64,000 nt of DNA, from positions 44,268,001 to 44,332,000 of the forward strand of contig CM022665.1 in NCBI GenBank assembly GCA_012295275.1, given 5' to 3'. The notes under the pieces were generated by a model. The model saw nothing but the letters and a program-made list of their open reading frames with translations. It was not told the origin of the DNA and ran no database searches. The position numbers were made by a program, and so were the translations under genes. Below are positions 125-3,100 of the stretch, piece by piece. The number at the start of each line of letters is the position of its first letter. Positions within the stretch are counted from its first letter, which is position 1. The stretch is from Chrysomallon squamiferum (lineage: Eukaryota; Animalia; Mollusca).

Positions 125-3100
125 GTAATGAATAACTTGGTTTTATTTTATATTTTTATTTATATATATATGTATATAGGTCTTTAACCTTTTTGAGATA
201 ACTTGTTCCTAAGAAGTCCATTTTACAATATCATTATCTAAATTGAAAAGAGAAGGGAAAAATATTTGTTCCAAACAAATAGCTTTTGAAAATGTATAAA
301 TAAAATAAATATAATTATCTTTATCTTTAATTATAATTATCTATAAAATGTTGAGATTACTGGTTCCTTTGAAATCTATTTTATTATCTCATTCATTAAA
401 CTGAAAACAAACGGAAAAACATATCTTCTAAGTAAATTAATTTCTGATGAATTATCTAAAAATAAAATAAATATTATAATTAAAATGAATATATATATAT
501 TTACTGGAAGAAACCATTTAATAAAATAATAAAAGAGTAATTAGTTTGTAAAGTTAAAATAAACTGGTTTATGACATGCTAATAAAATCATTTATGAAGT
601 AGAAATGAAATAGCCAGTTTATAAGACAACAATAACTATTAATTATTTTGCCTGAAGGGGGGGATCAGATGTTGTACAGATAACAATGAAATTATTAGAC
701 TTGGCCTTAGGGCATTCTTTATCAAGATTATTAAATTTACTGGCATGCCAACCACATCAAGTGTGTGTTGAGCTTGTGGAAAGTTTTCTTATTATATTGT
801 ATGATAACGTACATTGAATCTTATTTCAGACCTGACTGGATTATCCAAAGATAATTTTATTACTATTATTTATTTTTTTATTTTTTTATTTACTTATTTT
901 ATTATTATTATTATTATTATTATTATTATTATATAATTGATTAGTTTTCATTTCTTAAAATTATTTTATTGTACTTTTTAAAAATATTTTTTTATTTATT
1001 TATTATTTATGTTTGTTTTATTTTTATTTAATCTTTTTTATTTATTTATTTAGTTGATTTTTTTTTTCTTTATCAATGTGTGTGTGTGTGTGTGTGTGTG
1101 TGTGTGTGTGTGTATATATATATTTTTTTTTTTTTTTTTTTTAAATTATGGTACACAGTAAATATTATTTTTAAGAAAATTAATTATAAAAACAATCTAA
1201 AAGGTCAAATGAAAATATTTTCATTAAATAATAATATTAAAATGATCAAACTTATTGCATGATTAAAAAAAAAAAATGAAATTAATTTTGTAATCATAAT
1301 AATAAATGAAAAGAAAATAAAGTTAATACATTATTTTCAAAATAAAAACAATAAATGTCAAAGACATTTTTGAAAAAAAACAATAAAAAGAATGTAATTA
1401 ATGAAAAAAAAAATTAAACCTTTATATAATAAAATAATAAAAATAAATAAATAAATTATATATAAAGAAGTTAAGAAAAAAAAAAAAAATGATTAAACCT
1501 TTATATAAAAAAATAACGATAATAGCAATAAAAATAAATAAAAATAAATAAATAAATAATAATAATAAAATTTTAAAATATTTAAAAAAAAATTATTTTT
1601 TAAATATTAAAAATATATATATATATAAGAAAGTGAAGAAAGAAACAAAAACAAATAAAATAAAATAATGAAAAGTGTGAGATATCTGGGACCAGTGTTG
1701 TGTAATATAAATATAATAAACGCTCAGTGTGTTAATAATTGTTCTTGCTGCCGATGTTTGCCAACAGGTAGAACAGTACTACCAGCGAGCTCTAGAAATC
1801 TATGAAAGTAAACTTGGCCCCGACGATCCTAACGTAGCTAAGACTAAAAACAATTTGGTAAGATCGGTGGTCGTGTTCAATATACGCTGGGGTCAACGGT
1901 GACTGTCGCACATCCAGAATCAGAAATTCCATCGTAGAGAGCTTGTCTGTGTTTGTCCGTGTCCGTGTCCGTGTTGTAGCAGCTTTTGTCGTTTAAATCC
2001 TGGTTTTATTATATTTGTGTTAAAAAAATCTCTTTTGTATATTAACTTGTTTATTTCTGATGATTGAAATGCTTGGTTACCTTTGTGTGATTTCCGTGAA
2101 AAAACAAATTGAAATCAAAATTTTGTCTGTAAATGGTTTTATGATTACAAAAATTGATTTTTTTTCTTCTCATTTGTTAAGTTAGTTTATCTGTTATAAG
2201 AGCTGAACAAAAAGTTTTTAAAAATTGAATAAATTAAAAAATATTAAAAAAATAATTCATTTTCATTATCTCGGACACAAATTAATTTAACAGTGTTTTT
2301 GTAACACTAAGAATATATATATCCACTCCAAATTTTAAAACAGCAAGTGGAGATATTATTTATCCTTCCAGTAATATAAAATAATTATATTTTAACACTC
2401 TTATGATAGAATCAGGATGCTGGTATATTCTTTATTGTTAAGTTTTAAACTGAAACAGGTAAATTGTTTTATCTGTGCTTTACGTGTTAATACTAGGTCA
2501 GTCAGAGGCTTGTGGGGTGTAAGTTATTTTGTAAGACGTCAACATGGTGTCTTTTTTCTTATTGCTTTGGTATCATTTTTAACGATGGAATCTTCTGATG
2601 TCATCAGTTCTTTTTTAGACTAAATTAGCTTCAAAGAAAATTTGAAATTCTTTAGTAACAGAATTGCATTAGTCTCCTAATAAGTTTTGATGGATCCATA
2701 TAATGGGCTTGAACATTATATTTTGAAATGTAAAAACAAAATGCATACCGAAAAATTTGATACAAAATGTTTTTTGTTAAGATATGCTTGTATTTAAAGG
2801 AGAATGAATTTTGATTTTAAATTAAAAAAACAATAAACAACAACAACAACAAAAATTTAATTAATTAAATAAATAAATAAATAAAATTAAAAAACAGTAA
2901 GATAAACATGTATCATATAATGTCCAATCAGTGGAAAGTTTATGTAAATGATCTCTCCGTAAAAATTCATAAGGGGAATACAGCCACTGAAGAAATAAAA
3001 ACATTTATCCTTTTTGAAACATAAGAAAATCAATATTACATTATATATTTAAAACAATATTTTGAGATGTCATTCATCAAAACTTCAGTCAGCTAATGGA

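Follow-up and report, generated by a model that had tools for sequence, protein, structure and literature searches.

How might a gene that carries two neighbouring copies of one exon come to use either the one or the other? The window analysed here, by which we mean the whole stretch of 64,000 nucleotides, raises this question almost from its first base, as it opens inside a kinesin light chain (KLC) gene on the + strand and holds two alternative exons, A and B, between two constitutive ones (Table 1). A preliminary description of this DNA had proposed that an RNA stem joining the acceptor and donor regions of exon A places this exon in a loop, masks both of its splice sites, blocks U1 and U2AF, and acts as the off switch that allows copy B to be chosen. 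Here we follow this proposal through the exons, the stem, its possible competitors, and comparable systems in other genes.

Table 1. Exons and candidate pairing elements around the KLC exon pair, in window positions.
Feature	Position	Strand	Remarks
Upstream constitutive KLC exon	41-124	+	Ends ...NQGKYEE, phase 0; from translation, AG/GT ends and tblastn of P0024
Outer 5' arm	1721-1742	+	Predicted to pair with 1878-1893 or 3458-3478
Inner 5' arm	1747-1764	+	Over the pyrimidine tract of exon A; predicted to pair with donor A and, more weakly, donor B
Exon A	1768-1857	+	90 nt; canonical TPR4-TPR5 segment
Inner 3' arm	1855-1871	+	Last 3 exon bases, donor A, and +7 to +14
Outer 3' arm	1878-1893	+	1888-1893 common to element R3
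Element R3	1887-1917	+	Complementary to 3271-3295
Element R4	3271-3295	+	Partner of R3, upstream of exon B
Anti-acceptor element	3296-3310	+	Complementary to acceptor B (hairpin with 3338-3355) and to acceptor A (1764-1771)
Exon B	3352-3441	+	90 nt
Donor B and flank	3439-3479	+	Paralogous to 1855-1893; candidate competitor for the 5' arm upstream of A
Downstream constitutive exon	5018-5117	+	ASAYLKQGK...

The exon pair and its isoforms

The assignment of this gene to the KLC family was borne out by in-frame exons, by the proteins of relatives, and by the exon at 9647-9808, which is 91% identical to the KLC of Gigantopelta aegis and 80% identical to that of Haliotis; on these identities the gene comes from a gastropod, likely one near the peltospirid snails. 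Exons A and B are both in phase 0, and each joins the two constitutive exons in frame. They agree at 59 of 90 nucleotides and 23 of 30 residues, and because the codons are unlike at 17 of these 23 common residues, both A and B are kept for their protein. In fact, the two are neighbours of equal length and phase with intact CAG/GTAAG splice ends, as is expected of exons duplicated in tandem, and equal length and phase, together with one-or-other isoforms in relatives, uphold the earlier view that they are alternative copies of one exon. The intron between them has ordinary GTAAG...CAG ends and a length of 1494 nt, which rules out a short intron or a mixture of U12 and U2 spliceosomes as the source of exclusivity, and frameshift followed by decay could not enforce it, since the exons are 90 nt long. 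The nearest AG upstream of acceptor B lies at -40.

Proteins of related animals point to A and B as likely mutually exclusive exons: 37 of 38 hold a single copy (21 A and 16 B) and the only one with both is named "hypothetical protein", these isoforms being annotation models from a set that the B query enriched for B and that covered 15 of the 44 members of one cluster. The eight Gigantopelta isoforms carry exactly these peptides (six A and two B, with the exon B peptide identical in isoforms X2 and X6), the 22 isoforms listed for Haliotis divide into 15 A and 7 B, and B-type peptides are also found in Elysia, Plakobranchus, Candidula, Bradybaena, Biomphalaria, and Lymnaea. The A/B isoforms themselves are already in RefSeq annotation; our literature search turned up no paper in which TPR exons of KLC are described as mutually exclusive, and the 1993 squid KLC paper or exon catalogues in supplements may describe them. 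RNA run X7 yielded one contig over exon A, which is unspliced, and no spliced contig with exon A was seen over 1670-2200 in the two RNA runs used, one of which gave no contig there. Two exon copies also occur in 4 of 80 metagenome loci, from more distant animals (four of the genomic loci L063, L066, L075, L077, and L080 have two copies, L063 ending soon after the first); the second copies at these loci tend to be more basic, as is exon B here, and the exon duplication may be old or repeated.

As for what the exchange could mean to the protein, exon A corresponds to residues 358-387 of human KLC1, with numbering counted from the residues named in PMC6214655. Within this TPR segment lies N386, a cargo-contact residue of human KLC1 (PMC6214655). 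This asparagine is present in both copies, and B has a K to Q change two residues earlier plus extra basic residues; judged from these residues, the A/B switch may alter cargo choice.

Three further observations concern alternative exons of this family. At locus L075 (8805-8909) a mere 105 nt separates the two copies, AG is absent between +24 and the acceptor, and a distant branch point combined with steric exclusion is likely another solution at the same exon pair. At L077 (5337-5349) 13 bases at the upstream exon's donor are identical to positions 1858-1870 of the window, at donor A, probably by chance. Finally, there is another pair of alternative TPR segments in gastropod KLC (~...YRDQGK...), encoded upstream of the window, with two variants among isoforms P0001-P0039 and both in tandem in P0008, and these are likely to represent another mutually exclusive exon pair.

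The predicted stem across exon A

Sequences, coordinates, and pairing of the inner stem (1747-1764/1855-1871) proved to be as first described: 17 pairs, 12 of them Watson-Crick and 5 G-U, extend from G1747-U1871 to A1764-U1855 with G1756 bulged, at -20.9 kcal/mol. An RNAfold-type check of 1700-1900 placed the stem in the minimum-energy fold, with pair probabilities of 0.57-1.00 for 1748-1764, and the looping out of exon A stands, as a prediction, on this fold and these probabilities. The claim that both splice sites are masked held only in part, as the stem extends over donor A (-3 to +14) and the pyrimidine tract, spanning acceptor A from -21 to -4, and ends before the AG, so that the CAG at 1765-1767 is left outside. 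The acceptor tract is indeed GC-rich (50% GC, compared to 23-32% at three other acceptors), and the inner 5' arm has 50% GC within a region of 26% GC; the pyrimidine share of the tract is ordinary (0.64, the others ranging between 0.59 and 0.73).

Composition-preserving shuffles in which the splice consensus was kept fixed reached the stem in 3 of 5000 cases when both arms were shuffled, in 8 of 5000 when only the 5' arm was, and in 276 of 5000 when only the short 3' arm was; seven of the 17 pairs fall on the exon end or the GUAAG consensus. The same acceptor/donor duplex, computed for 9 further exon boundaries, two of which are off by one base, reached between -3.6 and -9.9. When partners for the inner arm were sought in 25,572 windows, its partner in the stem ranked joint second, an unrelated site pairing better (-22.9) and one other site equally well. 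The region 1700-1900 as a whole is no more stable than its shuffles (z -0.96, 39 of 200), and no Rfam match at gathering score was seen in 1600-3700, where two weak ones (E 0.29 and 0.81) both lie off the stem.

With regard to conservation, the alignable part of a contig from a second organism (run X10) is confined to 1745-1871, limits that lie two bases outside the stem on one side and coincide with it on the other. The seven listed differences are all synonymous in exon A (7 of 24 synonymous-capable sites), and among the 29 non-consensus intron sites of the arms no more than 3 differ, given three unlisted differences near the ends; depending on where these three lie, exon and arm divergence differ with a Fisher p of 0.002-0.08. 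The loose end of the contig keeps the R3 11-mer at 1887-1897 exactly. The outer helix, the only part to overlap R3, is not kept in this organism (-6.7 vs -14.1, with 30 letters on each side), which leaves unsupported the idea that it is a conserved part. The X7 contig has 7 listed events, none of which lies in 1742-1949 (p ~0.05 for the intronic part), and a variant at 1741 in the outer 5' arm or small middle helix. Run X6 gave no contig over 1670-2200, and X5 none across the stem. No compensatory change was seen, the one alignable orthologue having no listed change in the arms, and the invariance of the arms would suit a splice signal or a protein-binding site just as well as it does a helix.

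Five of the 80 metagenome loci are genomic with this exon standing alone, and all five are too distant for alignment; the stem duplex is not above chance at any of these (z +0.98 to -1.71), and one of 8 control exons reached z -3.2, which is about the level of the pairing between the 5' arm and donor B. The authors of the ATE1 study state that such structures tend not to stay conserved over long distances (PMC7797038). Read-through peptides (120 of the 252 matches) were too degenerate for flank information, and a degenerate exon-end pattern had 0 matches in genome and viral contigs.

Longer-range pairings and competing folds

The inner stem can be continued by an outer helix, and the 5' arm of the latter includes 1732-1736, which we take to be a likely branch point of exon A. 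Stem and outer helix together (1719-1765/1854-1894) reach -36.1, the best partner of 12,774 windows on both strands, a value attained by 0 and 2 of 5000 shuffles. A second strong duplex, R3-R4 (1888-1917/3271-3295), reaches -37.4 and is the best of 12,780 windows, the next being at -29.3, with 8 and 2 of 5000 shuffles as good. Between it and the splice sites lie gaps of ~30 nt (after donor A) and 56 nt (ahead of acceptor B), which are likely too long for simple steric exclusion. Directly 3' of R4, the anti-acceptor element (35 and 11 of 5000 shuffles) is able to pair through 3296-3303 with either acceptor; both forms were sampled, and neither pairing ranks near the top of the window-wide scan.

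The 5' arm also has a second candidate partner, in that 1721-1764 pairs either with 1855-1893 (-36.1) or with the donor B flank at 3439-3479 (-29.9; 21 and 98 of 5000 shuffles), the second partners being statistically weaker; the inner arm with donor B alone lacks significance (294 and 1088 of 5000). Exon B's own flanks do not form a homologous stem (-11.7, with 4890 of 5000 shuffles as good), and a pairing of 1950-1990 with 3525-3552 that would loop out B was rejected, as neither segment is among the other's top 8 partners. Overall, the A/B cassette holds 6 strong intronic duplexes, compared to 0-5 (median 1) across the 17 further stretches of this length that were examined.

Equilibrium folds of a 1.9-kb RNA are not reliable, and long folds are to be taken as weak evidence, including those in which the stem, present in 888, 948, 754, 848, and 863 of 1000 sampled folds with 3' ends from 1900 to 3450, drops to 6 of 1000 once the 3' end reaches 3560. 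This loss persisted with other bounds (2 and 8 of 500) and at 10 C (6 of 500). Holding 3439-3480 unpaired restored the stem (455 of 500), and holding 3456-3480 (5 of 500) or R4 (4 of 500) unpaired did not, the latter result leading us to reject R3-R4 as the opener of the inner stem. From the point where R4 is complete, R3-R4 itself occurs in 986-999 of 1000 folds, and the unpaired share of donor A rises from 0.13 to 0.45 in the later state. The free optimum of 1660-3560 (-396.9) is without the inner stem; over the same span, forcing the stem together with the outer helix costs 4.9 kcal/mol, the stem with R3-R4 2.8 kcal/mol, and the 5' arm with donor B plus R3-R4 0.6 kcal/mol, so that the competing states all lie within 5 kcal/mol. 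The open state is a mixture, and its best fold has the donor B flank paired to exon A itself. In these models the stem, which is local, forms ~1.5 kb before its competitor is transcribed. As a separate observation, the start of exon A (1777-1786) has a ~10-base complementarity to the donor B flank (3447-3456), and the two are paired in the best long fold.

A candidate switch, its alternatives, and related systems

Our preferred reading, which we advance tentatively, is that the inner stem is a predicted local helix, likely co-transcriptional, that would hide donor A and the pyrimidine tract, and that it likely constitutes the "A off, B on" state of a switch between competing pairings that serves two duplicated KLC exons, likely mutually exclusive. 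As long as transcription has produced no more than exon A and the intron, the stem would dominate and A would be off. Donor B and its flank, once made, would draw away the partners of the stem and free donor A, R3-R4 would bring the region of exon B close, and the element at 3296-3310 together with the flank pairing would partly cover the acceptor and donor of B, leading to "B off". Splicing of donor A to the downstream exon would remove B along with both competing 3' arms, the loss of which would in turn unmask acceptor A, and the A/B ratio might be set by folding kinetics, elongation rate, or RNA-binding proteins.

It is rather unlikely, in our judgment, that the stem works alone, with A off by default until a helicase or proteins open the stem, with proteins keeping B out, and with the donor-B-flank pairing incidental. 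Such a lone stem would agree with a conserved block that matches the inner arms and not the outer helix, with a helix that forms ~1.5 kb ahead of its competitor, and with the insignificant match of the inner arm to donor B alone; however, it does not account for the R3-R4 helix (best of 12,780), for the conserved R3 11-mer, or for the likeness of the donor flanks in spite of the fact that 17 of 23 shared codons differ. Moreover, a lone off switch, as envisaged in the preliminary description, leaves unexplained how B is excluded when A is used.

Unlikely, and ranked by us below the lone stem, is the explanation that the arms are primary-sequence signals (a pyrimidine tract, a donor, and a G-rich protein site), that exclusivity is achieved through R3-R4 and the acceptor-B hairpin or through proteins, and that the stem at most tunes the ratio. 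The missing covariation, the 5 G-U pairs and seven consensus pairs among the 17, the frequency with which shuffles of the 3' arm alone recover the stem (276 of 5000), and the near-constant presence of R3-R4 in folds with a complete R4 (986-999 of 1000) are consistent with this explanation, but the 5' arm is GC-rich (50% in a 26% region) and is matched by few of its shuffles (8 of 5000), conservation breaks off at either end of the helix, and the gaps left by R3-R4 (~30 and 56 nt) likely exceed what simple steric exclusion would allow. Chance complementarity, without a part in splicing, of two islands of high GC content in an AT-rich intron would accommodate the regional z of -0.96, the better (-22.9) and equal partners of the inner arm, and the absence of the stem at five distant loci, yet it is the least probable explanation of all given the shuffle results (3 of 5000 for the stem, 0 of 5000 for the full helix), the position of the stem on two splice signals, and the conservation limits in the second organism.

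Control of mutually exclusive exons by RNA structure is documented mainly in arthropods and in a few vertebrate genes. A compact molluscan case, with a helix on a donor, would extend the mechanism to another phylum, and the competing-pairing switch favoured here would probably represent a new gene and phylum for a known mechanism. Its closest counterpart is human ATE1, in which exons 7a and 7b are governed by competing R1R3 and R3R4 helices, shown by compensatory mutants (PMC7797038). The two genes are alike in having two duplicated exons, with elements on the acceptor of the first, within the intron that separates them, and ahead of the second, in helices (predicted ones in KLC) that do not just loop out an exon but cover splice signals, and in the kinetic control proposed for them. 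The ATE1 switch relies on a single intronic element that alternates between two acceptor regions that are similar, whereas in KLC the regions upstream of A and B are unlike and it is the downstream flanks that form the similar pair; furthermore, in KLC the main stem extends across the donor of the first exon itself, and the distance from R4 to acceptor B, upstream of which it lies, is 56-80 nt. Compensatory mutants back the ATE1 model, while the KLC case is a prediction only. A full mirror image of ATE1 would be a donor-toggling switch, in which an anti-donor arm on acceptor A pairs with donor A first and with donor B later, leaving one donor free at a time, and a second element toggles between the acceptors; on present models we consider this quite doubtful, and less likely than either the lone stem or primary-sequence signals. 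If true, exon choice would be set by transcription timing and the order of intron removal, and part of the kinesin-1 cargo-binding TPR groove would be swapped in snails.

The candidate KLC switch also resembles the docking site/selector systems of Dscam exon 6, 14-3-3zeta, Mhc, and srp, in that one arm has two paralogous partners, one after each exon copy (PMC6071210, PMC4691838). These sources propose a one-arm duplication model, in which an exon is duplicated together with one stem arm, and the KLC layout would fit it. In the docking site/selector systems, pairing activates an exon by bringing sites together, and the docking site is outside the cluster (PMC6071210, PMC4691838); in KLC, unlike there, the shared arm is on acceptor A and its partners include donors, so that pairing would silence. 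A local helix that encloses or covers an alternative exon is described for exon 6B of chicken beta-tropomyosin in PMC9198270, and KLC differs from it in gene and phylum and in the additional long-range partners predicted.

Other complementary segments were observed in this gene. The intronic inverted repeats 1919-1941/2576-2598, 2647-2669/3096-3118, 3614-3633/3942-3961, and 4254-4272/4996-5014, at -20 to -23 kcal/mol, would compact the introns around exon B, and the last of them covers the acceptor tract of the downstream exon. A (TG)18 at 1077-1113 and an (AC)12 at 4548-4571 flank both alternative exons and are mutually complementary, probably incidentally, as these are common repeats. Further downstream, the KLC exon at 9647-9841 could use either of two donors (9809 and 9842), in keeping with isoforms that contain or lack a short insert, and 9159-9173 is complementary to 9822-9836, between these donors (-22.3). 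In a later KLC intron region (11900-15300), five strong duplexes (to -29.9) surround an exon at ~14212-14328.
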